DNA of 63,191 bases, the filler included, from Reclinomonas americana ATCC 50394 (taxonomy: Eukaryota), in the NCBI GenBank assembly GCA_048213135.1. It is 12 parts of 12 records of this genome, joined end to end, with 100 filler letters (N's around TTAATTAATTAA, not from the genome) between each part and the next. Parts side by side here need not be neighbours in the genome. Positions count along the whole stretch, not along the records: positions 1 to 4,325 come from AFZH01017377.1; positions 4,426 to 12,030 come from AFZH01017378.1; positions 12,131 to 19,956 come from AFZH01017379.1; positions 20,057 to 21,846 come from AFZH01017382.1; positions 21,947 to 26,382 come from AFZH01017383.1; positions 26,483 to 28,813 come from AFZH01017384.1; positions 28,914 to 31,319 come from AFZH01017385.1; positions 31,420 to 39,415 come from AFZH01017387.1; 4 more parts are not named here. One strand, given 5' to 3'. The translations under genes were made by a program, and so were the position numbers. Below the pieces are notes generated by a model. That model had not been told where the DNA came from. It searched no databases and was given only the letters and a program-made list of their open reading frames with translations. Shown piece by piece: positions 1 through 59,400 of the stretch (positions are counted from its first letter, which is position 1; each line of letters begins with the position of its first letter).

Positions 1-1344
1 GCGTGCATCACTGGTGAAAAACACAAACCAAAGGCCACCACGCGAGAATGTCGAGGCCCGCACCTCGTAGCACGTGTACGGTGCCTGGAAGATCTCCACA
101 AACAGCAAGCCGACAAACAGCATGTGATTTCGCTCACTGACGCAGTTGCCGACAATGGGGCAGTGATCTGCACCGGAACCGATGTGAGAGATTGTGTCGC
201 TGGCGTGTGGCGTGCACGGCAACATCGCAACGGTCGTATCGTGGAACACAATGGCCGCACATGCGGCAGTGCTTGGCACGCATCGGTTTCGGCGCCTCGC
301 AGCGAGAACACGCACCATCCTCTGGATCCACGTCCAACTCGGCCAGCTCTGCGCTCCCTCGCAGTGTTGAGTGAGGGGAATAGAGCCACCACATGCGCGA
401 CACGCGCCCACCTTCGTTGTTGTATGGCCTTCGATTCAGCGAGCAGGAAATGTGAAAGTACATGGTCAGGCCGAACAGAACGAGCTGGATGAGAAGTGGC
501 CAGTAGTCGTTGTGCTTGGTGATGGCCTCGCGCAGCGGCGAGTACGACACCGTGAGCAGCACAATCAAACAGTACGAGTGCGACACCCAAAAGCCCAGTC
601 GTCCAAACAGGTCTGCCACCACACCAGCCACGTCAGTCACCGTCGGTGGAGAATGACAAGCAGATCACGCACCCATCTGTCTTCCAGCCTCGCGCATCCT
701 GCCACAAAGAGAGTGTGTGTGTCAGAGAAAAGGGAGTTGTGGGCGACTTGGCAAGGGTACACTCACATCTGCGACTCGCCGGCCCTCCGCGCCGTGCTGC
801 TGACACTCCAACTCGACGTGCTGTAGCTGGCACCGTTGCCAATGTAGCGCCCATGCTGCACACTGGCTGGCCACTCGCCATTGCCAACACCACCACCACC
901 AGTGCTATCACTGCGATGCACCACGCCCGCCGCTGCACTGTTGCTGGTGGCCGACACCACCGCATTGCTGCGTGGCATCGTCACATCGCTCTCCTCTCTC
1001 CTCATCAGTGGTACACGCGACCCTCTGCCTCGTCGATGCACATCCTCCTCATCACTGCCATCATCATCATCAGCGTGGAAATGTCCATCGACTGCGTCGC
1101 CGTATGGTGCCGTAGAGCTGCCGTTGAGAGAGTACAGTGGAATGCGCACAAACGGGTCATCGTCGTCGCCGTCAGTGTGGTGATGATGGTGATGATGGTG
1201 ATGGTGATGAGTGGTGACTGTGTGCGAGGATGGAGATTCTGCGGACAGCGGTGAAGGCGACAGAGGTGGTGGTGGTGGTGATGATGCCGTGGGAAGTGGT
1301 GATAGCTGCGGGTGCACGAAGGGCGGTGGTGGTGGAGACGCCAT
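1..1344 (-). CDS. DHHC-type palmitoyltransferase (spliced, 3' end outside window)
   Basis: CSRCEAPKPMRAKHCRMCGHCVPRYD joined across an intron to HHCPIVGNCVSERNH gives the DHHC Cys-rich domain; hydrophobic TM segments precede it; His/Asp-rich N-terminus from ATG 1344. Confidence 0.92.
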
Positions 1345-1554
1345 CTTCGCGGTTTGGCGAATGCAACAAAGAAGACTGACACGTGACACGCGTTTCATTT
1401 TCGAACTTCACGGTCTCTTTCTCTTTCTCTCTCACAAGCAGGAGTGTGTTCCTCCTTCTCTCTCTCTTTCTGACTAAATGCTATTCAAGTCTCTGTGCGC
1501 TGGCCTGCACAGCGCGGCTGGTGGATGGCAGCGATGACCGTCAAATCTCTATTT

Positions 1555-2579
1555 TCAGCGATCCACAGCCATCTCTCCGTCGGCATCCTCGCCTTCGCCG
1601 CCGCCAAAGAGCGAAAAGTCGTGAATCTGCAGCGTACGCAACGCAGTGAAAAACACCTGCTCTGCCTCGTTCATGTCGATGGCTGCAAGGGCATGAGCAC
1701 ATCAATGCATGCATGAAGACAACGACGTCGAGCGACACGCACCGCGAAGGCCCTCGGCGATATCACGATCAATGGCCTGGAAGGAGCTGGACTGCGGGTG
1801 GATATACGTCGGTGCATTGAGCGTCACCAGCAGATCGGTGTGATGCTGCACGACAGGAGGCCATTAGAAACGGGACACTCGGAAAAGGAACTGAGGCGCG
1901 CGCACGCAACAGCCGGCAGGCGGATGACGGCCAGAAAGATGCAGACTTTGTTCTTGGCTTCCTCGCGATACTTGCTCACGTGCTGCGAGCCGAGCAAGAT
2001 GAAGACGGGGAATTCACTGCATGCAATCCATCCATCAGCATATATACCGAACACAGAGACAAGTGTGTCAACACGCAACGCAAGATGCGGCGCCTGCTCA
2101 GCAGTGGCCGCCAAGCACGAGATCACTTGCGGCTCCGCATCGTCGTTGGCGTGCGCCAAGTCGCGGAAGTGATGCCTGCACGTGACTGGTGAGTATCTCG
2201 GATGCGATTTGGAGTGAGGCGGCAGAGCACACACGCAACTCGGCAAGTGCAGCAGCAGCTGGCACGTGTGCCTCCATCTCCAGCACCTCCACGATCAGGC
2301 TCTGATCAAGCGACACGTCGCCCCACACTTCCTGCAGAGAGGCTCTCAGCAAATGGACTCTCTCTCGTGTTCATGACATCCTGCAACACACAAACCTGCG
2401 CATCGGGAATCTGACGAAAGTCGCTACATTAGTGGTCACAGCAGTGCGTGAGTGTGTGAGAGGAGGGGCAAGAGAGAAGAGAGACAAAGAGAGAAAGAGA
2501 CTGCAGACCTGTAATCGAGGAATCGAGTGGGCAGAGTGGCGCTGAGCGCACCGCCAAAGAACTCACGACGCTCTTCCAT
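1555..2579 (-). CDS. MOG1: Ran guanine nucleotide release factor Mog1
   Basis: Spliced exons give MEERREFFGGALSATLPTRFLDYSDFRQIPDAQEVW...DQSLIVEVLE...HFRDLAHAND...IFLAVIRLP...TDLLVTLN...LQIHDFSLFG; FGGA, RQIPDxQE, DQSxIxE and DxSLFG are Mog1 motifs. Confidence 0.88.
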
Positions 2580-3933: not shown

Positions 3934-6900
3934 ATGGGCAGTGCAGGCTCCAGCCAGAAACAGGACCCCCTGGTCATCGACAACGATGGTCCGTCTCTCG
4001 TCTCTCTCGTCTTCTCTCTTCTTCTGTGTGTATTCTCGTACACACAATCTCCGTTCATCATGTCCTCCCAACTGACATGGGTTTTTCGTCACACACGCAC
4101 ACACATTAATCTGTGCTTCCCTCTCCTCTCTCACACACCTCTCACACGCACACGTGTGTGCGATAACTCACCGACATTCTCGAACACGACGACAGAGGAT
4201 CTGTTCGCACGCCTCAGTCACATTGCCGAGTCGTCGTCGCCGGGCGGTGCCCACAGCAAGTCCGCCGCCACCTACCAGGCCCTCCTCGCCAAAACGTGCC
4301 ACATCCAAGCCGCCTACCTGACCGTNNNNNNNNNNNNNNNNNNNNNNNNNNNNNNNNNNNNNNNNNNNNTTAATTAATTAANNNNNNNNNNNNNNNNNNN
4401 NNNNNNNNNNNNNNNNNNNNNNNNNCAATGAGCCCTTGCCGGTGCTGTCCGACACCACGGTGCCAACTGGTGTGTTGGTCATCCTGTACTACACCCCCGG
4501 AACTCCCACTCCTCACTCTCCCCTTGCCATCATACTTGCAGCGTGGACCAGCGAGGATCACAAGACGGCCATGACTGCCGGCCTCGAGTGCATGCGCAAG
4601 GAGTGCGTGTGGCAGATCACAGCTGCGCATTTTGACAGGGCACAGGCCGCAGCCGCCGTGCATTTTGGGCCGGTGGATGAGCGGCGCGTGGAGGCCTTGA
4701 TTGCGCTGGGCGATGTGTTGCTGGTGGCGCGTCGAGTGCGGCCGGATCGTGCGCCGACGGCCTTGACACCGGTGGCGCGGGTCGTGGCCATGCGGCTCAT
4801 GCAGTACACCGATTGTGAGCCGGTCGACAAGGAACGTGTGACCTCGGATGTGTTGTGTGCCCTCGATCGCCTGGCCTACTTTTGGTTTGTGGCGGGCAAG
4901 TTTTTCTGGGCCGATGCGGCCACCGATTTTGTGTACCAGCGGATTCAGAGCATTGCCAGTCCGCTGCGGCGGTTGGATGTCATGGAGACACGCGCACTTG
5001 GTGAGAGAGAGAGAGAGAGAGCAGAGAGTAGAGGGAGGGGGGGGGGGGTGTGCTGTTCATGCCTCCTGCCGTGCTCACTCGATATTGCAGTGTTGTGCGC
5101 ATGCGGCAAGTTTTCCGACGGCTCCGCCATGCAACAGCTGGTGATGAGTGGCCGGCGAACAGAACTCGGCGCCGACCATTTTGCCACCATGCGGTCGGAG
5201 CAGTACTTGGCGCAGTTGCGTGGGTGTGCATGTGCCTCTTTGTGTGTGGCGCGGAAGCTCACGAGGCATGCAAGCAGGGCGTATCTGGAGGATGGACTCT
5301 ACGGCGAGGCTCTTCGTGTTATCGAGCGCAATGTGGAGCATCGTGTGGCTGTGTTTGGTCTCAACCGTCCGACCACACTGCGCGCGCGAGTGGTGCTCGC
5401 TGAGGCCATCTACGCCTTCAAATCCGACGTGCATCGCACCGAGGCGCTGTCACAGGAGACGCTCGAATTGCACTTGGACCTCGACCAGGAGCTGCAGGAT
5501 CCGCTGGCCTTGGCCGACATCAAGTTTGGCTTGGCACACGCGTTCCACGCCTCGCGCTGGTACGAGCGCACGGAAAAACTGCTGGCCGAGGTGATTGTGG
5601 AACGCGGGGCCATTCTCGGCGACGAGCATCCGATGGTGCTGCAGGCGCGCGTGCGACGCTGCATGATGCTCTCGTACACCGGGCTCATTGATGAAGGACT
5701 GGCCACACTGAACGAGGTGCGGCCGCTGCTCAAGGCAGCTGGTCCGCCCAGCACGCAACTGCTGGAGGTGAGCACGTGGTGCCTGGCACTGGTTTTTGAA
5801 GAGTTGTTGTGTTTCATCATTTCTTTGCTGTTGTCGACAGGCGGTCAACAACTTTGGCATTGCGCTGGCCAACGACAGGCGACGAGAGGCTGTTGACGCG
5901 CAACGAGAAGGCTACAAGTTGGCCAAGGCCGTACTGCGCAACTACCATCCACTGCTGCTCGCGATGCAGGTCAACTTGGCCAACTGCCTGCGCGAGAATG
6001 GCGAACTGGACGAGGCGATTGAGTTGTTGACGTGCGTGTGGTCGAAGCGAGAGAGAGAGAGAGAGGAGCGTTTGTCAATTCTCACTGACTGTGTGCATGA
6101 ATGGAACAGTTCGGCGGCCGCGGCATTCGCAAAGACCATTGGCAAAGATCACGACGACACACTGGCCACCAAGGAGATTTGTTGCGTGCATGCGGTGCTC
6201 TGTGCAGCCTTTTTTTGTTAGCTGACATGCTTCTCCTCTTTTATGGACTCGCCAGTGGGACTTGCACTGGTGGTGAGTTTATCTTTCATCGTGCTCGTCC
6301 ATTGCTGCTGGAGGATCCACTCATTTTTTTCGTACACGTTACACAGCAACAACGCGAACGCGAACAAGACGGCATCAGCATGCTGACTGCATGCCTCGCA
6401 TCACGCCGTACGGCCAGCGGCGAAGATCACCCTGTGCGTCACACATGTTCCCTTTTTCCGCATCAGCTGCGCTGAACGGTACTTTGTCGCAGATGGTACA
6501 AACGGCGACGGTGCGCCTCTGCGAGGCATACTACAGCGTGGACCGCCACCGCGAAGCACTGCCACTGCTGCAGTGGGTGCGCGAGAGGAAGCTGGCCACT
6601 CTGGGACCACGATCGCGCGAATACATTTTGCTGCTGCCGTGGTTCGCCGAGGCGTACAGGCGCGACGAGGACTATCAGGGAATGGCCAACTTGCTGATCA
6701 GCCTGGTTCCTCTCGTCGAGGCCTTCGTGATGGACGAGTACACGGTGCGGTACCTGACGGAGCTACTGGATCGCTGCTGCGCCGGTAAGAACATCATCGC
6801 CTCGCCGCGGGAAAACACACTGGAAACGGACAACTCATTCTCCCCGCACACACAGTGCTGCCCGCCGAGTCCGTGGCCGCGATTGGCGAAGCACTGCAGA

Positions 6901-7118: not shown

Positions 7119-7207
7119 GAAGAGAGAGAGAGAGAGCGAGGCAATGATGAAAATATGTGAAATATCACGCGCAATTTGGTGACCAAAAAAACACTTACTC
7201 GGCGCGA

Positions 7208-8547
7208 ATGGAGAACAAGTGTTGCGTTTCGCCCACCACGACAACATCGCTTTCACACACACACACACACACGCACATGCGCGTCTCTCGTCTCCAGTCT
7301 CTCTCTCTGCCTGTGCGCGTGTGCGCGTGTGTGTGTGTGAACAAGTGGGACATTGTCACAGTGACTGGACTCCACGCGCACACGTCTGTCTCTCTGTCTG
7401 CTTCTGTGTGTGCCTCTCTGCGCGTGTGTGTGTGTGTCGCGCGACAGACAGAGAGATGATCAGTGCGAGGAATTTGATGAGAGAGATTGTTGTCTGCGCG
7501 ACCTCGATGTGTGGCACACTTGTCACTGACAACATACATCGAAAACACATGTTTGTCGGCGCGCACACAGTGGCCGGAAACGCCTCGTCATCATCCTCCC
7601 CCTCCTCCTCCTCGTCGGTGGCGGCGGCGGCTCCAGCGCCCATTGCAGTGAGCGGAGTCACGCGACTGCTCTCCTGGGAGGATCCCATCACGTCGGCCTT
7701 CTCGCTCGCCTTTGGCACCCTTGTGTACATTCTGTTGACATTTGGTGGCTTCTCGGCGCTGTCGCTGGTGCTGGCGTTCGTGTCGGTGCGCGTGGCCGTC
7801 ACCATTTGCCTCAAGCTCGTCTATCATCTCGTCGGGCAGAGCGCGCAGCGTGTGGCACAAGACGACCAGTTGCGCATTTATGTAGATCGACGACGATCGT
7901 GTGTTGCCTTTTGCTGACTCGAGAGAGTGGTAGAGCGAATACGTTTGCGGCTGATGTGGCGGGCGCGGTGGAGCGACTGGTGCGTGTGGGCGCGGAGAAG
8001 TACCGCCAGGTGACGTCGACCGGCACGAACTGGTCGCAGCTGCTGCAGGTACGTACACCTGTGTGTGCATGAGGGTGTGTTTGAGGAATCGGAATCTCAC
8101 GCACAGCGTTCCTCTGTCTTCGTTGCGGTGTGGCAGGTTCTCGGTGGCTGTGCGCTGCTGAGCCACTTTACCAGCTGCATCAGCACCGTGACGCTGGTCT
8201 TCATCTGTTGCGTGTTTTTTTTTTATTTCTCTTGCTGCGGAGGGAAGCGACGTATTCATCGCACCACCACACCCGCGCACACAGTGTTCGTCATCAGCTT
8301 TGTGTACCCGCTGGTGAGGCGCATTTTCCCAGTGCAGACGCAGCGTCTGTGGACCACGGTCGGCGGTCTCTACGCCCTCGCTCAGGCTCACGTTGTGAAC
8401 GTCGTCTCCAAGGTGATCAGCCGCCGTCTCCTTGTTTTTCCCTCTGTCGTATAGCCGACGCTGACCTCCTCACTCCCTCTCCTCCTCCACCAGGTGCCGT
8501 ACTTGCGTGACCTGGTCGTGCAGGGTGGCCGCGTCCACCAGGAATAG
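7208..8547 (+). CDS. Reticulon-domain ER membrane protein
   Basis: LLSWEDPITSAFSLAFG followed by two long hydrophobic hairpins (…FSALSLVLAF…, …STVTLVFILFVISFVYP…) and a C-terminal KVP-type motif; long microsatellite-rich first intron. Confidence 0.78.
7253..7457. repeat. Intronic CA/GT/CT/GA microsatellite cluster (example of a window-wide feature)
   Basis: (CA)n, (CT)n and (GT)n runs in reticulon intron 1; similar runs occur in many introns and next to several contig breaks. Confidence 0.85.
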
Positions 8548-8739: not shown

Positions 8740-9636
8740 ATGTCAAAGGTCACTGTGTTTGAGGACCCCGACGCGCGGTTCATTGCACAGAAGCGAGTTG
8801 CGTGTCCACCTGTTCACCTCGTCACACGCACGCACACTCACACCCCTTATTTAGGATGCCCGTCTCACACGCAAGCGTGGACGCGATGAGGCCAGCGAAG
8901 AGAAGCACGACAGAATCCGAGAGAAGCACATGGCCGACAAGAAGCGCAAGCTGACACAGCAACTGGGTCTCCAAACAGACGACATTCTTGATTTGCGCAT
9001 GCAGCTGGAGGAGGATCATCGCACCAAAAAGGACATGGAGGATGAGCTGTTGAGGCACCTGGGTGCTCAGGTTAGGAGCTCATGTGCGTGTGTTTCTCTC
9101 CACCCCTTCTCTCACGTCCCCCGCTCCGCAGCCAAAGAAGAAGCTGAAGATGCCGACCTACATTCGTCTCGGCATGGTGGATAAGCAGCGCAAGCGAGAG
9201 CGGAAGCGCTTGGAGGAGGTGCGTGTGTGTGTGTGGTCGAGAGGCTTGTGTGTTTTGCGTGTATCCCCTCTTTGACCGCTGCGACGTGCAGCTCCGCGAG
9301 GCTGGCATGCTGGCACCGGGTCAACGAGTGGGTGGCAGTCGCGCCACAAAGCCAACGATAATTGAGAAGGACTCGGCTGGCGAGAGATTCGCCCCGAAGC
9401 CGTCAAAGAGTGCGTACACAACGCTGTGCGATCGTTTCTCCTCCTGTCGTTCTCGTGCTCACACTGCGTGCGTGGCAGACGTGATTGGCCGGGTTCGTGG
9501 ATCGCACATGACGCTGAGCAGAGACGACTTGCATCGCTTGTCGAAGCCCGCCGCGTCCTCGCACCGCTCACCCCCGTCGAAGCCGAAGAAGAAGTCGGGC
9601 GACGGCAAGCAGACCAAGCGACGCATTCGTATGTGA
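8740..9636 (+). CDS. Basic protein resembling Faf1/C1orf131 (DUF4602) SSU-processome factor
   Basis: Spliced LGAQPKKKLKMPTYIRLGMVDKQRKRERKRLEELREAGML resembles the Faf1 LGA-KMP-GM-KQ-RE pattern; Lys-rich C-terminus. Confidence 0.55.
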
Positions 9637-12700: not shown

Positions 12701-15700
12701 CCGCTCCTCGTTCAGTTGCTTGTCGCGGTCGCGCAGACTCTTGCGCAGTTCGTCGTACACTGCATGCGCACGAGGGATGGTGAGGCTGCATATCACAAGG
12801 CTGCAGATGGACGATACACACACACACCATCGTCGCGGCTCGACATGCGGCTGCGTCTCCTCGCAATGTCATCCAAGTCACGCTTCCGCTGCTCAATCTC
12901 CAACTCCTTGCGATCAATGCTGGCCTTGGCAACTTCCAGCTCGCCCAGCAGGCGATCGCGCTCCCCAGTCAGCTCGTGTATCTGTGAGACGAAATCAGCT
13001 CGGCTGTGCGCGTGTGATTTCACGCAGGCCACACACCCTCTCCTTCGCGGCCTCCAGGTCTTTCGACATGTTGTCGATGCGTCGGCGGTATCTCGCGCGC
13101 ACCTCGTCAACCTTTCGCTCTTCGCTGGCACTCGAACGGCGGGCGGCGCCGACGGCCACTTCGTCGCGGTATGCTTTTTCAAGCACCTCGACTTCGTGTC
13201 GCAGTGAGCGCAGTTCCTTTTGGTACGGGCGCAAAATCTGCTCGGTAAAAAAACACGTGAACACAGCAGCCTTTGGCACTTGCATCCTCACACAAACGGC
13301 GCTCACCTCCTCCTTTGCAACCTCCTTTAGTAAATCCTTCTCCTTGAGGGCAGCAGCGAGGCTGTTCTCGTACTCTGCACGCGCCGATGTCAAGAGGTGC
13401 TCTGTTCGTGCATCGCATCACAAGTCAGTGAGTCGTCCGAATGGTAACACGCAGGTGTCTTCACCGACGCACCGAATTCCGTGCGCTCGGCAGCCGCACG
13501 CTTGTAGCGTCTCTTTGCGCTCTCCAATTCCTCCCGCAGTTTCTCGAGTTCCTGCTGAAGGATCTGATTGTTGCGCTCCATGGCCGTCAGTTGTCGCTGC
13601 ACGTGTCGGTGAGCAAACGAAAACACTTGCTTCTTTCGCCAGACGAAAACCACAGTCACCTGACTGGTATGCTCGGCCTGCTGTGCTCGGAGTGTCGACT
13701 TGACGGCCTCCTCGAACTTGACCAGCACAGTGCCAAACTGTGTGCTGCGTGGCCTCCTCAGACCGTCCTGTGCAACGCCGAGCGGCAACGGTGAGTGATC
13801 CACTTGGCGACACACCGCAACAAAAAATACAACACGCAAACACACCTGCACGTCTCGCGAGAGATTGAGAATGGAGGCAATGCGCAAGAGCGACTTGCTG
13901 CACTCGTCCACGCGAGTGCTCATGCGTGTGAGCTCCGACTCGTCTTCACTGTCCTTGGCCAGCTCGTTGGTGAGGCGACGGACTCGTCCCTCGAGTGTTT
14001 TTCTTGCCGTCTCCGTGCTCTCCAGTTGCTCACGAGTCTCCGCCTGTGTCCATTACACACTTGCGTGAGTGGCAACATTGCATGCAACACTTGCCAATGT
14101 TCATCTCCGTCCTCACCAGCAACCTCTTGGCGTTGCTCAGCTCGCTCTGCATCGCCTCCATTCCCACAGAACGCGACGCCAGTTCCCTGGTGATTTTCTC
14201 CTGATCGCGTCCAAAGTGGTGCAGCGCCCGCGTTACAGTCTGCTTGGCGTCCGACGCGATGGCTCGCAGCGATGCGACTTCGGCACGAACTGTGGTCGCC
14301 AGCTGCACAAACAAACAAACAAACATCCACCGGTTTTAGGAGAACTGCGGATCAATTCTTGTCATTTGAGCATGTGTAACTAACCCGAGATCGGAGTGCC
14401 TTGGACTTGTGGTCCAACAGCCGACACTTGGTCTCCTGCACATGCTCATGAGTTACAGCTTCCACAAAGGAGACAGTCCCGTCGACTGCCACTCGCTCAC
14501 CAGCTGGTCACGCATGCCGCGTTCACGCTGGAGCTGGTTCTCCAAGTCGGCGACACGGTCGTCAGACTGCGCAGCGTGGTCTCTTGCACTGCGCATAATG
14601 GAGGATGAGCTGCGCCCGCCGTCGCCTTCGCCAGCAGACCGAACTTGACGGATCTCGCGTTCCAATTCCACCACGCGGTCTACGAATGGCGCACAGGAAA
14701 TCAGATGGAGTGCATGCCAGTGACCACTCTGGACGATGATTCATTGACTCGTGCCAGCTAATTATCACCAAGATGTGCCACTGGCACCTTTGTTACTGTG
14801 CAACTCCTTTAGCCTATTGTATGCGGCCTCGATCTGACGGCGTGCCTCCCGTTCTTCTGATAGGACACCTGCCACACACGGCAGAACACAACGACAATCA
14901 ACAACCAGCACGAGAAGAGCAAGGCGGTGCACATTCATCTCTTGCTTACTGTCTGTCTCCACAGCATGCCTCTTCTATAGTTCCCCCTCTGTTTCTCCCC
15001 TCTCCTGCTACGTGTGCTGGTATACTTCCCACATTCACCACCATCGGCCACCACGCACCTTTTAGTCTGCTAATGTTGCGACCGGCCTCGTCCAGGTGTG
15101 TCACTAGCAACTGTCGATTGCGCTCATAGTCCGACAGCTTTTGCTGACTCTCCGTCTCCGACTTTCTCAACTCCACATTGGCCTCGCGCTCGGCAGTCAA
15201 TCGAGCCTCCAAGGCGACCACCTGCGCCAGACAACAAACGGCGTCGATTTGAGATTGTAAAACATACCGAGTGCCATTCACGCGCACACGCAACTCCATC
15301 GCGCAATTGCTGAATCGTGGCCGCAAACTCGTCGTTCTTCCGCTCCTCGGTGGCGCGCAACTGCTCGCGACTCTCCTGCTCGTATCTCTCCAGCAGTTGC
15401 TTGGTCTCATTGAAGAATCGCTGCTCCAGCTCACGAATCTTGCGCTCGTGCGCCTCCTGCGTGATGGTGCCTCGTGTCACTGCCGACAGTCGGTCCTCAA
15501 ACTCGTTGCGAATGCGACTGGTCTCCACGTGCGACAACTGCTGCTGCATGCTGGCAAACGAATTGCGTTCGTGCAGCACGCGCTCTTTTTCTCTGCACGC
15601 GCAAGAGTGAGCAAGATACTCACACAAGGCGCAACAAAGCGACACTCAACTGCTTCTCCGTCCACAACTGCGTCTCCAGCAGCGCCACTCGTTCCTCGTA

Positions 15701-31677: not shown

Positions 31678-31708
<31 letters not shown>

Positions 31709-42496: not shown

Positions 42497-45400
42497 ATGG
42501 AGGAGCGCAATGCCCGCCAGCTCACTCGCGACTCGATTGCCGCCGACGAGGCAACAGCGTTCCGCGACCAGGTGCCACCGACAGTCGCCGAGCCCGCCAC
42601 CGTGAATGCCTCCAATGAGGTCTCGTATCAGCTGCTGCGCGGCAGCTCGCGCTCCAACTCGCAGTCTCCCGCGCGACAGCGCCCTCTTCTCGTGGCCTCC
42701 TCCACCTCCACACTGGCCCTGGCCGCCGCCAATGCCGCAGCCGCTGCGCATCCGGGAGACGCGCTGCCGCAGACTCTTCACGCGCATGTGCATTCACACT
42801 ACCGACATGAGCACGAGCGCCGAGTGCACCTCTCGCTGCCGCTCTCTGTCAGCAGTGACCACATTGCCTCGGCGGTGTCGGCGGCCGTGACTGCCACGCA
42901 GCTGCCGTCGCCACGCGAGCTGCATCATCCGGAGACCTATGCGCAGTACCGTGCTGCCAGTGGAGGATCGGGACTGCCGTCGGAGTATGCCAGCACGGCG
43001 GTGTATCCGGCTGGTGGCGTTGCTCTGCCCACGCGGCCGCGTCACCGACTGACCAAGATCGTGGCCAGTTGCGCGCTGCTCCTTGTCACTCGAAGAGTTG
43101 TCTCTCCGACTGACTAGTGATGCAGCACTGGGTCCGGCCACCTTCAATCGCGTCGACGAGTTGCTGCTGGCCGGCACCAACGTCATTCGTCTCAACATGT
43201 CGCACACGGACGATCCCACAGTGTTCCACGACCACATTCTCAACATTCGTCAAATGGCCAAGCGACTGGCGGTGCCCGTGGCCATTCTCGGTTTGTGTGT
43301 ATACCAGGCAGTCACATGTATGTACGCCACCGTTGCTGATGGGGTGTGCGTGGCACAGGCGATCTGTGTGGACCAAAGATGCGTACGAATGAGATGATCG
43401 ACCATCAGCCGGTGCCGCTGGAGGTCGGCATGACTGTCGAATTCGCGTTTTCTCGTGAGCACGGTGGTCGTACGGCGGCCGACGCTCCGATCCGTGTGAC
43501 CACGAAACTGCGCGATGTTGTGCGCGATCTTACTGTCGGCCAGGTGCGACAGCAAGCACGCTTTTCAGCCTCTCTCTGTGCTAATCTCGCGTGCCCTCTG
43601 ACAGCGCGTCATGATCGACGACGGCAACATTGTGCTGCGCGTGACGGAGCGTGTCGACGAAACGCTGGTGCGGTGTTTGGTCGTACAGCCGGGAGTGCTG
43701 AAAGATCGCAAGGGCATCAATGGTGCGGTGGAGGAAGTGTTGCTGCCTGCGCTTTTTTTCTCCGAGACTCACTCGCGTCGCAGTGCCCGACATGAAGGTC
43801 GCCATGGCCGCTCTCACAGGTGGGAGTCTCGTGGGAGAAGGGTTTAGAGAAGAAGCAAGTGTCTCACTGTTGAGGTGTGTGTGTGTGAGTGCAGAAAAGG
43901 ACAAGCGCGACGCGGCGTTCCTGCTGCAGTACGACATTGAGTACATTGCGCTGTCGTTTGTGCAGGTGTAGTGGCGGCGCATTCACACCTGGCGCTAGGT
44001 GCACGGCACTCATGATGTGTAACAGGGTCCGGAAGACGTGCAGGATTTGTTGGACTTTATCCAGGAGAAACTGCCGGCCGGGAAGCAGCGGCCGCACATC
44101 ATCTCCAAGATCGAGAAGCCACAGGTGAACGCGTTTCCTCGCAGCGATGCTGCTGCTGCTTGTCACACATAATCGTGCAGGCTCTGGATGTGATTGACGA
44201 AATCATGGCACTGACCGACGGCATCATGGTGGCGCGTGGAGATCTCGGCGTCGAGTGTGCACTCGAGTCGGTGCCAGTGGCGCAAAAGATGCTCATTTCG
44301 CGTGCAAATCGTGCCGGCAAGCCCGTCATTACCGCCACACAGATGCTCGAATCGGTACGCTGAAGCCAGATGCGTGCACTTCATCAGTCGTTTACACGAG
44401 TACTCACTGTGCGCGGCACTCAAGATGATTGAGCACGGATCGCCGACGCGCGCCGAGGTCAGCGATGTGGCAAATGCGGTGCTCGATGGCACCGACGCCG
44501 TCATGTTGTCGGCCGAGTCGGCCACCGGCAAGTTCCCGATTGCTGCCGTCGAAGCGGTTGCGTGCGCAGCACACTCATCAACCACAGCTAGTTTGTGGTG
44601 CACTGACGTGTGCGGCAGATGAATCGCATTGCGCTGGCGGTGGAGGCCAATCTCGACCAGTGGCGCTTGTCTGTGCACAAGATTGAGCCGGTTTGTACAA
44701 AGGAGCGAGATCGCAGTCAGGAGATTGTCACTTTGCTGACTTGCTGACGCGTACAGACGCGCTTTGTGCACCACTCCAGCGACTACTTTCGTGAGAGCAT
44801 CACCCGTGCTGCGTATGCTGCCGCGCATTCGTGAGTCCTTCCTCCAGCTGATGAGTGATTTGTGTCGATTGCTGACAACTCGTGTACGTGGGCCAGCCCG
44901 CCGTGCAACGCGGCCATTGTGTGCTTCTCGGCCAAGGGCGTGACGGCGACGCACTTGTCCAAGCTCAAGCCAACGTGCCCAGTCATTCCGGTGCTGTGCG
45001 ACGAGCATCTCTACAATCGATGTGCTCTGTACTGGTCCCTGTATCCAGGTGAGTACAACAGCAACAACAGTAAGTCATGCCATTTTCTGCTCATTGTCCA
45101 TTCTCCTCGTCGTGATCGTCCAGTGTTGGTGACTCCGAGCACCTCAGTCGACGAGTCGCTCTTCCGTGCCGAGGAGGCCATTCGTGCGCATCACCTGCTA
45201 CAGGAGCAGGATCCGATTGTTTGGTACGCTGCCTCTTGCGTTTGCAACATGAACCCGCATAACTGACTATGTGAAAAAAAAAAGGTGCGCCGGCATCACT
45301 GACTTGGCCGGCCTCAGCAACACGCTGTCGATGTCGTTCTTTGGCGACGCCACTCGCTCACATCACGCCAAGTGCATGTGGACAAAGGCCATCTCGTCGG

Positions 45401-48122: not shown

Positions 48123-48171
48123 AACAACTCACCGCTTGATGTTACACTCTTTTCGCGATCGGCGTGCATCG

Positions 48172-51133
48172 CTACTGTACAGTCACTGGCGCGCCGCCGA
48201 CCGGCTGCACATGCACGGCGTCCTGCAGCACACGGTGCAGCATGCGCGCAGCGCCACCATTCAGCAGTTCCACAATGGCCGCGAGTGGCGCCACCACTTC
48301 GCGGAGACTGACCGACTCCGATTCAGGTCTTCGCCTGCGAGTGGCGTCAGCACAAGCACACCTTTGTGAATAGGGAATGCGCAGAAGAACGACTCACCGC
48401 CTCCGACTCTTGCGTCTCTGTCGATGCGACTCCAGAATCGCGACCGAAAGCATGTTGCGCGACTGCGTGGCCACTTCCTCCGCATCGCGATTGCCTGTTA
48501 TGCGAGTGTGAGGAAGCATCTGGGGGAGTGGGCCGACCTGCCCCTCATACGCACGATTGTCCACAATGTCGCCGTGACAGCCGCACTCGATGAGGACCGA
48601 GAGCAGGCTCGAGGCTCCGGCGGCCGCCGCGAAATGCAGCGCCGTCCACCCTCCACTTGTCTTGTCACACATGCGTGCACCATGTCGCATCAGTTCACAC
48701 ACGGCAGCTGTGTTCTTACTCGCCGCAGCAAACATGAGTGGCGTCACCCCGTCTGCACGTTGCTCCCACCAGGTGAGCCACTAGAAGCAGGCGAGCAAGT
48801 CATGTGTGACGGACCTTCGGAGCCGACACGTACAGCGATGCTGGGATTCGCACCGACCTCCAACAGCACAGGCAGGAGACCTGGGTCACCGTCGACGGGT
48901 GCACACAGGGCGCACACCAGTGGGGTGAGGTTGCCACACTCAACGACAGGGGCGTTGGCCAGCTGCGAGATGAGGGTGTGCCCGTCCGACAGCCTTCGCA
49001 GACGATCGAGCACCGCTGCCATGGCCGAGTACTGTCCCGTGGCGGCGCACCAGTGCAACAGGCTGATATCTGCACGGCAAAACGAGACACTGTGAGGTTG
49101 ATATGACGGGCTGTCGAACAGATCAACTGGTACGCAACTCTCCGTCAAATCAAAGTAGTTGTCTTCGGGACTGGCGGCCAGCATGTCGCCAAAGAGCGAC
49201 GATGGCTGCGGGCCACTGTACGCAATCTCCAGCAGCAACGCGTGGACACCTGAGAAGAAGCCGCCAATTCAGCACCGTGCTCACGCAACCGCAAGGAATA
49301 CACAACGCACCATCGTGATCGACTGCCAATGGATTCGCTCCGGAGCGGAGGAGGCGGGACGCGAGAGTCGCATCGCGCTGCACAATGGCCGTCATGAGCG
49401 GCGTGCGCCCGTGAGAGTCTCCATGCTCCAGATCGGCGCCGTGTCGCAGCAGCTCGTCGCAGGCGACCAGACGACCGGCACGAACCGCCAACAGCAAGGG
49501 ACTCTCGCCTGCCGACAACGCAAAACGCAATGAATAATCACAATAGAACACGCACACGGCTAGGACGCGCAATCACACGCACCAGCCTTGGTGGCAGCCT
49601 CGAGCCGACAGCCGCACTCGACCAAGTATTGGATCTTATCGGCGTGCCCTTCCACCGCGGCAAAGTGCAGTGCCGTGTAGCCGGCCGCATCCAGAGCCAG
49701 CGGGTCGCTGAGGCCCGTGGGCGTCAGCACCGCCTCGGCGAGGGCATGCTGTTGCAGTCCGGGAGCCACCGATTGCAGCAGGCGGGCGAAAACCACCAGT
49801 GACGCTCGCATCTGACACGCACGCAACAGCGGCGTCCAGGTGGCAAACGGAGCGTGTAGGGTGTGCACGGGATTGGCGCCGGCCGAAAGCAGCAGGTGCA
49901 TGACGGAGAAATGGTTGCCACTTGCGGCGTGCATCAGACCTGCCAGTAGCGGCAATTGTTGGGCAGCGATAGAGAGACAGAGAGAGAAAGAGAGAGGGAA
50001 ACGGGCAAGTGAGAAGCGAGCGCACCTGTGGCTCGACCAGGTTTATCGGTGGCCTCGTCGGGGCCAACATGCCGCAACAAAACCTCCACCACATCGGCGT
50101 GACCGTAGCGACAGGCGAGTGAGAATGCCGACTTGGCGGTGCGCATGTCACCCTCCTGCAGACGAAACGGTGGCGTGAGAGACGCGCACTCGATGGCGAG
50201 ATTGCCAGCACAAACCTCGGGAAAACTGTATCCATCACGACGTGCGAGAATGGCGGCCTTGGCGTCCGCGTGGTCGCGCAACACGGTCTCCAAGAAGGCA
50301 GCATCGCCTGTCTGACACGCTGCGTGTACCAGACCGGCCTCCACCACTGCTCCAGCCAGTGAGTGGCGCGCATGAATGAGTGACAGGGGGGAGGAGAGAG
50401 AGAGAACACGCAACACTGTTGCAATGGTCGTGGTGGTGATGCAGAAACCACGTGGTCTCCGATAGCTGCGTGCGCGCGACGAATGAGTGGCTGCACTCAC
50501 ATGCACAAAGCGACAGACAGAGAGAGAGAGGCACGCAACGAGAGAGCGGCGACTGCATTGGCGAGACAACTCGTCGCAAGAACGCGTCCGGCCCATCCCG
50601 ATCCTCCACCGTCAGCGTCAAGAAGCCCGCTGCGGTGGTCGGACTGCTTGAGGAACTCGCCGTGTCGAGTCGCACGGGCAGTGCGGCGACGTCTTGCGAC
50701 GAAACATACACGGGTAGGCGAGGCAGGCCTGACATCTCACAGTCAGTGAGGGATAGGTAGAACACACAACAAAGAGAGCGCAACTTGCTCCGCCCATGCT
50801 CTTGCGCATGGCCAGCTTGGAGGTGGTGGGCGAGCGCACCATGGAGGCGGCACTGCCGGTACCTGTGTTTGCGAGAGTGATCATGAGTGCATGCATGCAA
50901 ACTGACAACACGATGGCACAAACCTGGCGATGAGTGAGTGGGCGATGGCGGTGCCACTGCCTGTGCGAATGCCTCGCGAGAGGCGAGGACCGATGGCACT
51001 CGGCCTTCTGCATGAGTGTGTGCGTGTGTGTGTGCGTGTGAGAACAAGTGTGCAGTGATGCGTGATACGCGGAGTGCAAACCGGGTGATTGCTGCAAGAG
51101 GGAGCGCGGCACTGGTGGCGGCTCCATTATCAT
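48172..51133 (-). CDS. Ankyrin-repeat protein
   Basis: SAFSLACRYGHADVVEVLL, GYTALHFAAVEGHADKIQYLV, GESPLLLAVRAG, GRTPLMTA, TPLMFAAA, GWTALHFAAAAG; frame-consistent 5' exons from ATG 51133. Confidence 0.88.
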
Positions 51134-53192: not shown

Positions 53193-56100
53193 TTACGTGG
53201 CGCTCCCGTTGCCTTGTGCACGTCGAGCGTCGTCCAAATGCTGCGCCAGCGACTCACGCCATATTGACTGTGAAGCAAGACAGACGGCAATGAGTTTCTT
53301 TTCACAAAAGAGCGAGACTTCTCCCTCCTCCTCCTCTCCTTCCTCCTGTCGACGTCACACTCTTTCTTCTATTTCCTCCCCACCACGCTGGTTTTGGTTG
53401 TCCCGCACTTGTCGCTTCCCCTTCCCATTGCTCTCTCCTCCTCCTCCCGTCTCCCTCCCCACCCGTGGCATGCACGTTCTCACCTCTGTTGGCACGCGAT
53501 AGTTGCCACCTCCACCGACCACACCGGTATCGTACCCGTACACTCCTGGTGGTGCACCGGCAGCTGCGGCCGATCCCATGGCAGGATCGTACGACTGCAG
53601 GCCGAATCCACCGGCACCCGCACCCGCGCCGCCGCTGCCGCCGTCGTACGGTGTGCCGTAGCTCACCGGTTGTCCACCCGACGGCGTCATCCCCGCCGCC
53701 ATCATCGCGTCGTATCCAGAGCCGCCGCCCGCCGACGGCTGCGACGGGTACATGCCGAGCAGCGAGAAATTCTGACCCGAGCGGATGCCCGTGGCAAAAC
53801 TGTTGCCCAACGCCGACGCAAAGCCACCCGGTCCTGACGAGGACGACAGCAGACCGGATCCTGCTGGCCGACTATTGTGCGCGCGTGTTATTGTTTTTTT
53901 CGTACGCAGTGGAGCAAGCAAGAGGGACGGGACGCCTACAACGCAACGATCCACTGGCTCCTCCATCTGCGCCACCTGCACCCTCCTCCACCACCGACAA
54001 CTGACCGGCCACTTTCAGGTCGGCAGCGACATCCAGCTGCGGCCGTGACATGGGTGGCCGTCTCAGTACCTCGGTCCGCGCGGCCGAGTGACGAGTCCAC
54101 GCCTGTTGGTGATTCGTGTGAGTCGCGGAATCACATCGGAAATGAGAGCAGGACCGCAAACGCAACATTCAAAAATTCAAGTGGCGGAAGCATCTTGCGC
54201 TCGTAGTCCAAGAAACCCTCCATCCAGTCCAGCTGCGACAATTGTCGTCGCAGTTCAGCCTCCTCGCCCAGCAACACACTCAACTGCGCACAACTCATCG
54301 TGTTAGCGCACTGGCCGCGATGCATCGCTGGGGGAAAAACAACTGCACACCTTGTTTTGCGTCTTCTCCTGCAACCTCAACATGGCCTCCTGCAGCAAGC
54401 TGTACAACTGTTCTTGCACCTCGGCCGAGTTGCGGTGGATCTGTGTCGCCAGCACGCAAATGAGTCTCGCACACAGTCTCTTTCGCACTTAGTGCTTCTA
54501 CCGACAAACCTGCTCCAGTCGCTCGTCGATCTTGCCCAGGTGTTGCACAATGGCTGTCCGTCTTGTTTCCACACCCGGGTCCTCCTTCTTCGACGTCATG
54601 AGTGCTTGATCGTAGGCTTGCGAGATGGGTATCAGCTTGTGCGTCGCGCCCTCGCCCGACGAGTGCGAGCCGACCATCTTGTCGTACACACAGATCGCCT
54701 GGTTCCACACTGGATCCCAGAACTCTAGCGCCATTTGCGGATGCGACGGGCAGTAGCCGAAGAAGCGAGGCTGCGACGGTGGCGAGCACGTGAGCAACTC
54801 AAGAGAATACGAGACAATATCCGCTGCCCCCAACTCAACTTGCTTGTCACCACCGATGCGAGTCTGCAGCGAGTTTCGCACACGATCGACCGCTTGCCGA
54901 GTGGTGGCGAGCGCCACTTGCGCATTCTCACCCCGCCCGACACTACAGACGAATGAACCATGGTTAGCAGACAGAGAGAGACAACACGCCGGCAACCATC
55001 GAGGGGACGCACCCAAGTCGCGTTTGTTCCACAGATCGCTCCAGGAGACGAATGTCTTCGCGGAGCGCCAGCGCGTCCTCCAGCCGGTCCTCTCGCTTCA
55101 GTGTCTCATACATGCCTCGAGCCACATTCAGCTCATCTTCAATCTACGAGATTCAGCAACAGTTAGCACTTCCATCCCCACTCCACGTGCCCCCCCCCAC
55201 AGGGCGACGTACGACAGACCTTGGTCAACTCATCGGCCAGCGGATCGTACTCAAACATGACATAAAACAGCGGCAGCACTTGTGCATCGTCATACATCGC
55301 GTAGCGGTGATAGTACAACAGTCCATCGGAGGGATAGTGCGAGAGGAACGACGGTACTTTGCTGCCGGCCGAGTCTGCCGCACCGCCACCTCGCGAGATG
55401 CTGCGCACAGCAATCAGCCACACAACGAAACGAGGTCTTTCCCTCTCTCTCTCACTCACCCCGAGCCAGCACCGCGACTCGGTGTGCCATCCGGTGCCGC
55501 AATCGCACTGCTGTCCACCGTCTCCTCCGTCTCACTCGAAAACACATAGACCGAGTCGTACCCGGCCGGTGCTGCACACGGATCCAGGCGTCAGGCACAC
55601 ACACACAGAAGCTTCAGAGATGAGTGCGCGCGCAACGTCGAGTCTCCGCAGTCAACACCGACTGCTCCACTGGGAAGGCACGTCCGACCGCGGCCCGGCA
55701 CACCAGATACTCGTGCCGACCCGATCGTGTGGTGTTGCGCAGCGGCAACTCGCCCACGGGAAAGAGACCACCCTGCGGCGCCAACTTGAAGCCGCGCTCC
55801 ACCACCGTATCCAACGCATTGCCACTGTCACTCAGTGCCGACACCTCCACCAGCGAATCCAGTGTCAGAGCACCCTATGTGCGTGCGGGCCCGATTTCGT
55901 CAGTGCACAGTCCGCACACGATTCGAGCGAGGCACATACACACACACACTGACACTCACTCACTCGATCTCTCACTGTGTGCGTGTGCGTGCGTGTGCGT
56001 GCGTGCGTACCTTTGCACGCTTCTCGAAGCGAGTCAGCAAGTGCGGACCACCAATGGGCACGAGTGCCAATACACGTGCCGATGACGAATGCAGCGCCTG

Positions 56101-56316: not shown

Positions 56317-56496
56317 TTGAGCGATGGTGCTGCGGGAACCGTTGCGTGGGACCGGTCGTGACGTTCGACCTCCCTTCGCAATCAAGCACCTTTGATCACA
56401 GCTACGGGCCGCAAGTACGCATTTACGGCGGATGTACACTTTTTTTGGGGGCATTTGGGAACACGAAACGCGGAGGAAAAAACAACAACATTCTTA

Positions 56497-59400
56497 TCAG
56501 TACCCGCCTCGCCGTCTTGACGCTGCGCCGCTTGGTGTGGTTGATCTGCTATTCGGTTCGCTTCCACCACTGCCACCACCACCATTCGCAACAACTGTAA
56601 TCCCGGCGGCCAGTGGAATGCCGGCGGTCGCTGCTGCGGGACTCGCAGAACCCTTGCGACTGCCGGCAGACGACCGAGAGCTCCGCTTGACACCACTGTG
56701 TGCCGGCCCGGATGAGTTCATTGCGCCCTATTTTCCCATTCTCTATCGTGCTCACCTCGTGGTGGTGGACGAGGCGCTGGTGCGTCGATGGGCTGCCACG
56801 CCGCCGTTGGGCGGTTCCATCATGCCAGCCGACACGGCACCTGCCACACCACCCATGCCACCGACGGTACTACCGCCAGCAGCCGTGCCGGTGGTGCCAG
56901 CGGGTGATGTGGGGGCGGTGGAGAACGGTCGACGGGAGGCGGTAGTGGAGGCCGCGGGTACTGCACGGCGCGTGGTGGCCGTGGCCGTGGCCGTGGAGCT
57001 GACTGTCGCCCCGCGCCTGAGCACAATTAAGGACAAGGTGAGAGAGGGTTGAGCACCGATCGCCCCCTGTTGCAGAGACGTACCCATTGGACGAGGGACG
57101 AGAGCGTCCGGCACTCCGTGGTCGAGAACTGCATCGATGCGGTGTGTGTCAGCCTCGCAGGGGAGATGAAATTCAAAGCGAGCGGTACTCCAGCAACGCA
57201 ACCCTGACACGCCACGCGCTCCTGGTGACGGCGACCTTCCGTACTGGTCACGAGCGTGGTCACGAGTGGCCGGCGACACGGCACGAGTGGCACGTGGTGA
57301 CGGCGCTCGCCCTGTACGCAGTGTGAGCACGTTTCACAGAAAGTGGCGCACTCGCACAGATACACACCAGCCGATCGTGCACGAGGAGTCGTGGAGCGAC
57401 TGTTGGGAGCCGAGGTCTTCTCCCCGCCGCCAACCACATGCACCGGCGAGACACCGCGTGGAGTACGACGACCTTGCGGCGAGACCGACCGTCCCGAGCG
57501 ACCCACAGTGACTTCTGTGTCGACTGGAGCACCGCGTGGTTGCCAGTGACCGTGTGTGCCGACCGATGTCGGTGTCACCGACCGAGCTCCACGTCGTCTG
57601 CATTTCGGCACATTGGTGAGTTTGGACGAAATGCAAACAAAAAAAGCCAGCGACGCAACGGTGCCAGCGGATCGGTGCTGTCGCGGCCCTCACGTCGCGT
57701 ATGCTTGGCCAGTTGTGGTACGTCCTCCCAGTATGGAATCACGCGCGACGGCCGAGTGAACAGACCATGTCCTTGTGGACAAGTAAAGTAGCGGATACCC
57801 TGCACTGTGCCATCGTTCTTGCCATCTGCAAGGAGATAGAAGTGAGTCATTGTCGGCTGCACACACTGAGGTAGCAGAGAAAATGACGCACATGGCTCCT
57901 CGAGTGCCACGCCAACCCACACTCCGGGAGCAAAACGGCTGCGCCCAATGTACCGCACCACGCCAAGATGGTGCTCGTTGGTCACCGTCACGCGATCACC
58001 CACAGCAAACATGACATACACCTCGTCTTCGTCTTGCAAGAAACGCTTGCTCTCCTGAGAAAATCGGCACGAACACGCGCACAGTCAGCGACCGCATCTT
58101 CGGCAGCGGCACGGCGCACACAATAAACAAACGCAACATCCCACACAAGCTTCCGTGCCGACGTGGCCTGACCAGGGACAGGTCGCGGTCCTCCCACGCC
58201 CGCTCCTGCTGACTCACGCGCACCGACACCAGCGCCTGCATCCCGCGGCGACGGCTCCATGTCATCGCCCGCCTCCGACGGTGACTGTAAACACACAACA
58301 CACACACGTCAGTAAACATCTCTTGCCCATTCTTGCATGCCTCACACACCTCGGTGATTCCATCGACGGCATCGGGGCCAGCAAAACTCGACGGCGAGTC
58401 AATGTACTCCTTGCGCACGGGCTGCTGCTGCATCCACACCATGTTGCGATGACTCAGCTCCATCGGTTGCATGCGCATTGGTTTGGCCGTGGCCGTTCCG
58501 GCGCCGGCCGCAGCTGCCACTCCTGCCCCGCTGCCAGCAGCAGCGGCGGAAGATGAGCCGCTGTTGCCGAACTGATCGGCGGAGAGACGCCGAGTCGTCT
58601 GCGTCCGCGAGGAGGAGACACCAAAGCCGCGAGACGGAGGACGATCCACCACGGCCTCTGGTGACACCGCACGTCGTGCACTGCCACTGCTGGCCGGTCG
58701 GCGATTGGCCATCGACCCGGATCCACGTTCGGGTGAATGCGACCGATTGGACAGAGCGGAACTCGACAGTGGAGGTCCTTCAAAGGTTTTCCTCTGCGGT
58801 GCCGCCAGCTGCTGCTGCTGTGGTGTGAGACGCATGGCAGAGGTCGGTAGTGACGCTGGCTTGGCACTGCCCGCTCTGCCACTGCCGCTGTTGCCGCTAT
58901 TGTTGCTGCTGTTGCTGTTATTGGCGACCGAGGACGAGGCCAGCATGGCAGCCATGGGTGGAGGGAGACCACGACGGTAATCCGGCAGCGACATTGACGT
59001 TGGAGCAGACATGGTGCGCGGCTCATCGACGCTCTGCCGTGCAACGACGTTGTTTTCCGTGAGACGGATGAACACGTTGCAGGAATAAAGTGACAGATAT
59101 GCGACTCACCGCCGCCTTTTCGTCCTCGTTATCCTGCTGCAAAATGCGGCTAATCATGCTCTCCAAGTGTCGCATCTGGTCGTTCTGCGATTCGATAGTG
59201 GCCTGCAGCTCCGCAATCACGTGGTCGGGGTCGTCCAGAGCCTCTGCGGCAGCTGCTCGACACGTCAGTACAAACACACACAGATCGCTACTGGGCGTTT
59301 CAAGACGCGCACGAACCGGCACGAGGAGGTGACACGGTGCGCAGCACGCCACGCTGTGAACGGCTGAGTGATTCGTCCAGATTCATGGAGCTAAAGCTCT

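Follow-up and report, generated by a model that had tools for sequence, protein, structure and literature searches.

The question raised by this stretch of Reclinomonas americana ATCC 50394 DNA (63,191 bases, assembly GCA_048213135.1; the whole stretch is referred to as the window) is whether its many introns beginning GTTGCG belong to a genuine class of 5' splice sites (donors), where such introns are cut, and how U1 and U6 small nuclear RNA (snRNA) could read them. The DNA is eukaryotic and very rich in introns, which are typically 55-90 nucleotides (nt) long with a CTSAY-like motif 12-30 nt ahead of YAG. Donors of the GTTG type are called class B below, and the others ordinary. By protein homology, predicted gene structure and chance controls, GTTGCG(T/C) was confirmed as a genuine and abundant GT-AG donor class, estimated to open about 20-30% of the introns here.

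Junctions were pinned with family profiles built from 116 M20 peptidase homologues, 42 pyruvate kinases and 12 CCDC40 proteins. Exon matches were located, and every frame-keeping GT/GC...AG pair within about 40 bases was then scored. This profile-guided sample was unselected and comprised 21 junctions, 17 of them resolved by at least 5 bits and 4 ambiguous. GTTGCG starts five of the 17, and at each the GTTG donor was the top of all GT/GC-AG candidates. The M20 peptidase introns lie on the minus strand at 37483..37558 (GTTGCGTG; contiguous at profile positions 325/326; best of 7 candidates, 171.7 vs 166.5 bits) and 36932..36996 (GTTGCGTG; profile positions 461/462; best of 28, 90.4 vs 84.7 bits). 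The other three are on the plus strand, at 43068..43125 (GTTGCGCG; best of 17, 56.7 vs 46.7 bits) and 44557..44618 (GTTGCGTG; best of 19, 96.3 vs 91.0 bits) in the pyruvate kinase gene, where the former restores TKIVATLGP, and at 40002..40077 (GTTGCGTT; best of 27, 116.8 vs 110.5 bits) in the CCDC40 gene.

Three further GTTG donors were pinned by targeted checks. At the DHHC palmitoyltransferase intron 168..231 (minus strand; GTTGCGAT; 64 nt, with a branch motif) the upstream exon stops at Pfam DHHC position 33, the split codon, which encodes the H of DHHC, is position 34, and the downstream exon continues from 35. The Mog1 intron 2176..2239 (minus strand; GTTGCGTG), which the gene model described below also contains, divides the Pfam Mog1 match into an upstream exon reaching position 58, a split codon at 59 and a downstream exon from 60. 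For the class-B variant 29316..29378 in the YlqF/MTG1 GTPase gene (plus strand; GTTGCATA), the match to positions 1-32 of NCBIfam TIGR03596 ends on the last residue of the exon and that to positions 33-65 begins on the first residue of the next. All eight pinned introns are GT..AG, their family-profile coordinates are contiguous, and excising them recovers the reading frame together with the conserved protein. The preliminary description of this DNA had held that DHHC, the pyruvate kinase VATLGP and the MTG1 DAR/IP sequence are restored across the junction, and each of these was borne out by a family-profile match.

A cut at the first G of GTTGCG is supported by the same scores. At the TKIVATLGP junction, shifting both intron ends by 1-3 bases gave at most 30.1 bits against 34.1, and only the GT..AG frame yields the T. 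At the three other junctions tested, shifts of both ends scored about equally, and only zero shift gives GT..AG.

Abundance was estimated with a gene model, a simple home-made dynamic programme for spliced open reading frames (ORFs) with codon scores trained on family-confirmed ORFs. The trained version had self-trained first-order donor and acceptor models and exon-level strand resolution. Run without any donor model, the programme returned GTTGCG as the commonest donor hexamer (9 of 90 introns). The trained version gave 145 introns, of which 28 began GTTGCG, 18 GTGCGT, 10 GTGAGT, 7 GTTTGT and 5 GTACGT; GTTGNG donors totalled 31. Earlier models, in which the intron cost was flat or the codon tables were poorly trained, predicted too much and ran genes together, and a strict seed search with 25 open codons on both sides yielded too few introns; GTTGCG ranked first or near first in them. 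The earlier observation that a large minority of introns carry the usual motif following GT (GCGT) one base further downstream thus held for 31/145 modelled and 5/17 profile-pinned introns.

Because the gene model is partly circular, controls independent of it were added; for the sense/antisense and architecture controls the gene strands were taken from the model, most of them being confirmed by family hits. Within 48,270 genic bases GTTGCGT occurred 31 times in sense and 4 times in antisense orientation, and GTTGCG 54 and 21 times, respectively. Intron architecture was defined as a branch-like CT[CGA]A[CT] plus a YAG giving an intron of 50-95 nt. It followed 33/53 sense GTTGCG, compared with 1/21 antisense GTTGCG and 754/3530 (21%) of all sense GT (Fisher p 1e-10 and 4e-6). 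The class was present in 10 of the 12 segments from which the window is joined.

The donor signal of class B mirrors the ordinary one after a slide of one base. GTTG donors show +4 G, +5 C, +6 G and +7 T (71%), where ordinary donors show +3 G, +4 C/A, +5 G and +6 T (67%). The G of the canonical frame at +5 is missing (C 93%, G 2%), and the intron side is near-invariant (+5 C 93%, +6 G 96%, with +3 T and +4 G fixed by definition). The exon side differs from that of ordinary donors. Among pinned donors G stands at -1 in 12/12 ordinary but 1/8 GTTG sites (p 1e-4), and in a donor-blind model in 18/25 ordinary but 0/9 GTTG sites (p 2e-4). The commonest -1 base of the pinned GTTG donors is A (5/8), and A precedes 21/45 GTTG donors against 10/50 non-donor GTTGCG (p 0.008).

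The base at +3 is restricted to T: intron architecture followed 33/53 GTTGCG but 0/4 GTAGCG, 5/33 GTCGCG and 9/47 GTGGCG, which is the background rate, and the trained model used 28 GTTGCG donors against 1 GTAGCG, 3 GTCGCG and 2 GTGGCG. At +5 of GTTG donors C outnumbers A by 42:2; at +4 of ordinary donors, the corresponding position, the ratio is 32:20 (p 6e-5). The class is therefore more than a T inserted into GTGCGT. There is a trade-off, in which ordinary donors lean on the exon G at -1 and have a loose intron side, whereas GTTGCG lacks that G and has an intron side that is almost fixed.

As to the ordinary donors themselves, those pinned by homology are at 43291, 43544, 43966, 44125, 44355, 38216, 37959, 39801, 40322, 40581, 40771 and 41353. 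Their exon G at -1 is near-invariant, and GTTTGT, GTGTAG, GTGAAC, GTTCGT and GTGTGT all occur on the intron side. A at -2 is unenriched in ordinary donors (17/67).

Apart from the donor, class-B introns match the others in composition and branch distance. The branch motif CT[CGA]A[CT] lies 12-27 nt from the 3' end in 25 of 29, as in other introns, and the median length is 65 nt against 67 nt. Pairwise similarity has a mean of -0.07 and a maximum of 0.23 among class-B introns, and a mean of -0.12 and a maximum of 0.24 among the others. An introner or transposon-derived intron family was accordingly rejected, as class-B pairs are no more alike than other pairs and the introns are unrelated in length, composition, branch distance and pairwise similarity. 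U12-type (minor) introns are marked by an RTATCCTT donor and a TCCTTAAC branch site; on direct reading, none of the 45 GTTG donors showed the extended U12 donor or branch motifs.

Such a family would be one way for the class to be unreal; the others are misplaced junctions, for example of GC-AG introns, and a T introduced by assembly error. That any of these explains the class is extremely improbable. It must be conceded that all junctions were inferred from DNA, reading frames and homology, not from RNA, and that homology alone resolves single bases weakly at three of four junctions, where some shifts of both ends differ by less than 1 bit. Against this, a GC-AG intron starting three bases downstream (GCGTG...) scored 5.2, 5.7, 10.0, 5.3 and 6.3 bits lower at the five junctions where it was compared, and was rejected; the conserved T of pyruvate kinase is restored by GT..AG only. 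An inserted T was rejected because G at -1 would then remain, yet it is gone. The lack of mutual similarity, the shared length and branch-site distance, and the spread over 10 of 12 segments likewise speak for a real class.

How the class is recognized was considered against the canonical U1 5' end, ACUUACCU, and the canonical U6 box, ACAGAGA. The account judged probable, with appreciable room for doubt, is that G/GTGCGT and /GTTGCGT present the same motif to U1 and differ by one base in where the cut is placed, which would make this a shifted register and not a +3 bulge. The common seven-letter U1 target would be G-x-U-G-C-G-U, with U in place of G as the second letter in class B; owing to that U, the sole GU would start one base earlier and the cut would fall one base upstream. 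U1 would bind in a register shifted by +1, with the intron G+1 on U1 C9 in place of the exon G-1, U+2 mismatched with C8, U+3 on A7, G+6 on C4 and U+7 on A3, while an A at -1 could pair with U10. The tri-small nuclear ribonucleoprotein (tri-snRNP) would then fix cleavage at the GU. If the ACAGAGA box of U6 pairs G+6 and U+7 as it does the ordinary G+5 and U+6, one extra nucleotide would be accommodated at the catalytic stage, and the cut would lie six, not five, bases upstream of the U6 G:C pair. Pairing of U+3 with A7 would make T obligatory at +3, and the lost G at -1 together with the T-only +3 fits a displacement of the entire U1 helix by one base. With the human-type U1 5' end of PMC4856993, from which that of this organism may differ, the class consensus folds exactly in the shifted register, at -1.5 kcal/mol.

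Several results weigh against a shifted register. Duplexes predicted with the canonical U1 5' end are weak, with a mean of -2.0 kcal/mol for 45 GTTG sites against -6.9 kcal/mol for 67 ordinary ones, and G+1 falls on C9 in only 9 of the 45 GTTG folds; it lies on C8 in 4, C4 in 15 and U2 in 1, and is unpaired in 16. C at -2, with which U1 G11 would be expected to pair, is unenriched (14/45 against 13/50). The modelled contrast in G at -1 (55/67 ordinary vs 3/45 GTTG) rests on an ordinary set of 67 from a model that scores positions -3 to -1 too, which the pinned and donor-blind sets do not. G is also fairly rare before non-donor GTTGCG (7/50), so the contrast at -1 indicates absent selection for G and not proven depletion. 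Finally, the bias to C at +5 gives a hint of some other partner, such as a U1 variant or a protein, since the pseudouridine of canonical U1 would favour A. On account of the weak duplexes, the few shifted folds and the +5 C preference, an altered 5' end of U1, an additional U1 species or a protein acting as partner is kept under consideration.

The first two of these would make GTTGCG a fully matched site of its own: the 5' end of U1 would be altered, with G facing the C of GCG as one possibility, or an additional U1 would be complementary to GUUGCGU, and U6 or its spacing might be altered to match. The very poor pairing that class-B sites show with the 5' end of canonical U1 (mean -2.0 kcal/mol) is what such a partner would leave, and the almost invariant intron side (+5 C 93%, +6 G 96%), the strong preference for C over A opposite the canonical pseudouridine (42:2) and the similar leaning to C at +4 of ordinary donors (32:20) point the same way. 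The U1 5' end, however, is among the most conserved RNA sequences of eukaryotes, and GTGCGT is used with canonical U1 in other GC-rich genomes. A variant snRNA is accordingly regarded as rather doubtful. Equally tentative is a wider proposal, that two-register donor recognition is built into the lineage, with a changed or second U1 that would match GUUGCGU by a G facing the nearly constant C, and a routine six-base U6 cut in a quarter of introns.

The preliminary description had suggested, besides variant snRNAs, a bulge, in which U1 would pair canonically (G+1 on C8, U+2 on A7), one U at +2/+3 would be bulged and GCGU would pair as usual. The class does resemble GTGCGT with one extra T, its downstream logo agrees after a one-base slide, and the consensus returns when one nucleotide between +2 and +5 is removed. 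A helix with a +3 bulge leaves C9 for the exon G and ignores the identity of the bulged base, and both predictions fail: the G at -1, still pairable with C9, is lost (1/8 vs 12/12 pinned, 0/9 vs 18/25 donor-blind, 3/45 vs 55/67 modelled), and T is the only base found where any would serve. The minimum-energy duplex places G+1 on C8 at just 4 of 45 sites. A bulge is therefore unlikely here, even if experiments support a +3 (or +2) bulge as a register in human, where PMC4856993 gives 68 predicted +2/+3 and 51 predicted +3 sites among 201,541. The shifted register is retained as the probable account.

Shifted registers and bulges both have human precedents. Shifted-register 5' splice sites are said to have been described by Roca and Krainer in 2009, and bulge registers by Roca and colleagues in 2012. 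According to PMC4856993, PMC11162779 and PMC9311317, U1 in the human shifted register pairs one base downstream of canonical and cleavage stays at the GU. Class B is alike in that the site resembles the consensus moved by one base and is predicted to be cleaved at the GU; moreover, a test oligonucleotide of PMC4856993, ACA/GUCAAGUAU, has at -1 the A that is commonest here. The human sites are few even among atypical donors and are built on AAGU, whereas the motif here is GCGU with an obligatory T at +3, and it is the commonest single donor, at about 20-30% of introns, with a register predicted from sequence. Noncanonical U1 registers are marginal in animals, the validated ones amounting to 1.5% of 201,541 human sites in PMC4856993.

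The +2/+3 and +3 bulge registers of Tan et al. 2016 (PMC4856993) share with class B a seeming insertion between +2 and +5 and a missing canonical-frame G+5. They differ in that exon-side pairing of G-1 is not retained here and T is the sole extra base, and they are rare in human (68 and 51 predicted sites of 201,541), whereas class B opens at least one intron in five here. In passages of PMC11162779, U1 marks the site only roughly and the tri-snRNP sets the cut, normally five bases upstream of the G paired with U6 C42 and four bases upstream at one site, the STAT3 tandem donor. Class B would resemble STAT3 in having a non-standard distance, but that distance is four bases at a single tested site in STAT3 and would be six here, in what is inferred to be a genome-wide class; the passages of PMC11162779 on U6 registers describe no six-base spacing. 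Appendicularian tunicates (PMC13326754) are likewise a whole lineage off the usual donor signal, and a shifted U1 register is raised there too. Their introns abandon GT/AG itself, whereas the introns here are normal in GT-AG, branch site and size and deviate in nothing but the register of the flanking motif.

No GTTGCG-type donor class was described in the literature among the best-ranked matches listed, as judged from titles and abstract openings, supplements lying outside the scope. The kind of mechanism is already known, and its scale in one lineage, the motif and the trade-off between exon G-1 and intron side look new. An organism with such a register as its commonest donor would be a natural system for studying how the cleavage position is settled once U1 has departed and how tolerant U6 pairing is. 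In practical terms, gene finders relying on a single position matrix that expects a +5 G would overlook or wrongly place at least one intron in five, here and in relatives.

All 33 sites of the form GTTG(C/A)(G/A) and both GTTTCGT sites of the preliminary description were present at their exact coordinates and strands. As donors, 21 of the 33 were pinned by homology, found in the self-trained model, or both, and the rest are candidates at most; eight were pinned (231, 2239, 29316, 36996, 37558, 40002, 43068 and 44557), and the model recovered 19. Among those recovered by the model, the minus-strand Mog1 intron 1846..1910 (GTTGCGTG) follows an exon in which the Mog1 profile match reaches the last residues. 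Intron 6181..6255 of the TPR gene (plus strand; GTTGCGTG) has an ambiguous acceptor, either 6221 (gene model, 41 nt) or 6255 (local solution, 75 nt, with branch motif), and alternative acceptors are possible for 8797..8854 (plus strand; GTTGCGTG). The minus-strand intron 15222..15294 (GTTGCGTG) was also obtained as a frame solution.

The SPRY/CTLH gene has four such introns on the plus strand, 22596..22678 (GTTGCGCG), 23097..23157 (GTTGCGTA; also a frame solution), 24044..24118 (GTTGCGTG; CTLH profile match from residue 2 of the downstream exon) and 24425..24488 (GTTGCGCG). Plus-strand introns of the model also include 27218..27276 (GTTGCGTC), the variant 31823..31900 (GTTGAGTA) and 32806..32869 (GTTGCGCC), and minus-strand ones 50339..50414 in the ankyrin gene (GTTGCGTG) and 54103..54166 (GTTGCGTT). 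The exons around 27218 had been called PARG-like from an NFADP sequence; family searches with them gave no family, and the intron is predicted by the gene model.

Seven of the remaining 12 listed sites have a strict branch motif and a YAG at 56-83 nt. They are 5215..5277 in the TPR gene (plus strand; GTTGCGTG; CTCAC and CAG, 63 nt; an in-frame, stop-free candidate found as a frame solution and absent from the gene model), 32230..32292 (plus strand; GTTGCGTC; CTCAC and CAG, 63 nt; in the model before strand resolution), 42141..42219 (plus strand; GTTGCGCG; CTAAC and CAG, 79 nt; frame solution) and, on the minus strand, 50466..50539 (GTTGCGTG; CTCAT and CAG, 74 nt), 50729..50784 (GTTGCGCT; CTCAC and CAG, 56 nt) and two candidates in the CAP-Gly gene, 57598..57659 (GTTGCGTC; CTCAC and CAG, 62 nt) and 58055..58137 (GTTGCGTT; CTGAC and CAG, 83 nt; the model uses donor 58121 with the same acceptor).

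Three more, all on the plus strand, have a YAG only, at 69-78 nt. Site 7221..7297 (GTTGCGTT) is doubtful, with the YAG at 77 nt, no branch motif and weak frame support; 8207..8284 in the reticulon gene (GTTGCGTG; 78 nt; frame solution) and 27751..27819 (GTTGCATG; 69 nt) are candidates without the strict branch motif. The last two run into an N spacer. At 41515..41576 (plus strand; GTTGCGTG) a CCDC40 exon ends, with the profile match reaching the site and CTGAC at +47 of the intron, which the spacer cuts. At 29024 (minus strand; GTTGCGTC) the donor follows MITDDQ, an OST4-like start, and the intron end and the downstream exon, on which the proposed OST4 junction depended, are hidden by the spacer. 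Of the two GTTTCGT sites, the preliminary description had supposed that each might be a shifted donor. Local solutions of 77-78 nt exist for both on the plus strand, at 18880..18956 (GTTTCGTG; 77 nt, joining WD40-like exons) and 33130..33207 (GTTTCGTG; 78 nt), and the gene model picks other donors, 18885 and 33177, respectively.

The gene model added 11 GTTG donors that had not been listed. The Mog1 intron 2017..2079 (minus strand; GTTGCGTG) would, if read through, add about 20 residues foreign to the Mog1 profile. Others on the plus strand are 7869..7933 in the reticulon gene (GTTGCGCA) and 32630..32700 (GTTGCGTA), and on the minus strand 13768..13821 (GTTGCGGT), the variant 15593..15650 (GTTGAGTG), 15752..15803 (GTTGCGGT), 49070..49138 (GTTGCGTA), 53872..53947 (GTTGCGTT) and 55572..55636 (GTTGCGCG). 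The M20 intron 37211..37276 (minus strand; GTTGCGAG) is a probable member for which homology is undecided, with 108.2 bits against 109.9 for a GC..GAG alternative. A weak candidate, predicted by the gene model only, is the unusually long (158 nt) 49921..50078 (minus strand; GTTGCGGC). GTTG donors cluster by gene, with three consecutive ones in Mog1 (2239, 2079 and 1910) and four in SPRY/CTLH (22596, 23097, 24044 and 24425).

The base composition of the window is 54-62% G+C. Its 12 segments are joined by 11 identical spacers, each of 44 N, TTAATTAATTAA and 44 N, at 4326-4425, 12031-12130, 19957-20056, 21847-21946, 26383-26482, 28814-28913, 31320-31419, 39416-39515, 41577-41676, 51920-52019 and 61055-61154. 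The TTAATTAATTAA sequence carries stops in all six frames. Because the pieces are joined artificially, genes and introns that reach a spacer are truncated there, as at the OST4-like start at 29042 and the CCDC40 end at 41515.

Microsatellites of the (GA)n and (GT)n/(CA)n types abound in intergenic DNA and introns (5000-5050, 6045-6065, 7110-7140 and 7265-7345), and raw counts of GTGTGT and GTGCGT are inflated by these non-donors. Rfam gave no family at gathering scores in the window; at E values up to 1 it returned 17 sub-threshold matches, 16 to microRNA (miRNA) families and one to a C/D small nucleolar RNA family, and none to an snRNA. Several of them sit on low-complexity or hairpin DNA. 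At 3037-3155 and 7255-7341 unrelated miRNA-precursor models match both strands below threshold (E 0.0003 to 0.9). Instead of miRNA genes, these matches indicate an inverted repeat or hairpin around 3.1 kb and, around 7.3 kb, a (GT)n/(CA)n tract.

Genes were assigned by family searches on stop-free ORFs and exons. Those placed encode a DHHC palmitoyltransferase, Mog1, a TPR protein, a reticulon, a WD40 protein, a SPRY/CTLH (RanBPM-like) protein, YlqF/MTG1, a GNAT acetyltransferase, an M20 peptidase, CCDC40, pyruvate kinase, an ankyrin protein, a CAP-Gly protein and a PH-domain protein. Introns are dense in them, with 6 in about 1.9 kb of the M20 gene (36859-38760, minus strand) and 11 modelled in about 2.2 kb of the pyruvate kinase gene (43025-45300, plus strand). 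As several introns are in frame and stop-free, some are hidden within long ORFs, such as one of 509 residues at 37234-38760.

The M20 peptidase (PM20D1-like; 36487-38760, minus strand) had bacterial-type nearest relatives at about 33% identity in a search of 5.8 billion proteins, and a metagenome scan with an M20 exon gave no relatives. Its last modelled exon runs on into a long proline-rich tail with Glu-Pro repeats. No longer protein matched a 55-residue pyruvate kinase exon in the first homologue search. The nearest named pyruvate kinases, from chytrid fungi, are 45% identical N-terminally and 68% identical in the core, and a metagenome scan with a pyruvate kinase exon kept 80 loci, of which the best, at 76% identity, is no close relative.

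The gene at 39516-41576 (plus strand) is a homologue of CCDC40, a ciliary ruler protein, and its nearest named relative is from Andalucia godoyi (38% identity). Pfam matches to BRE1, ATG16 and Sec2p there were rejected as coiled-coil noise. The CCDC40 homologue suggests a flagellated organism.

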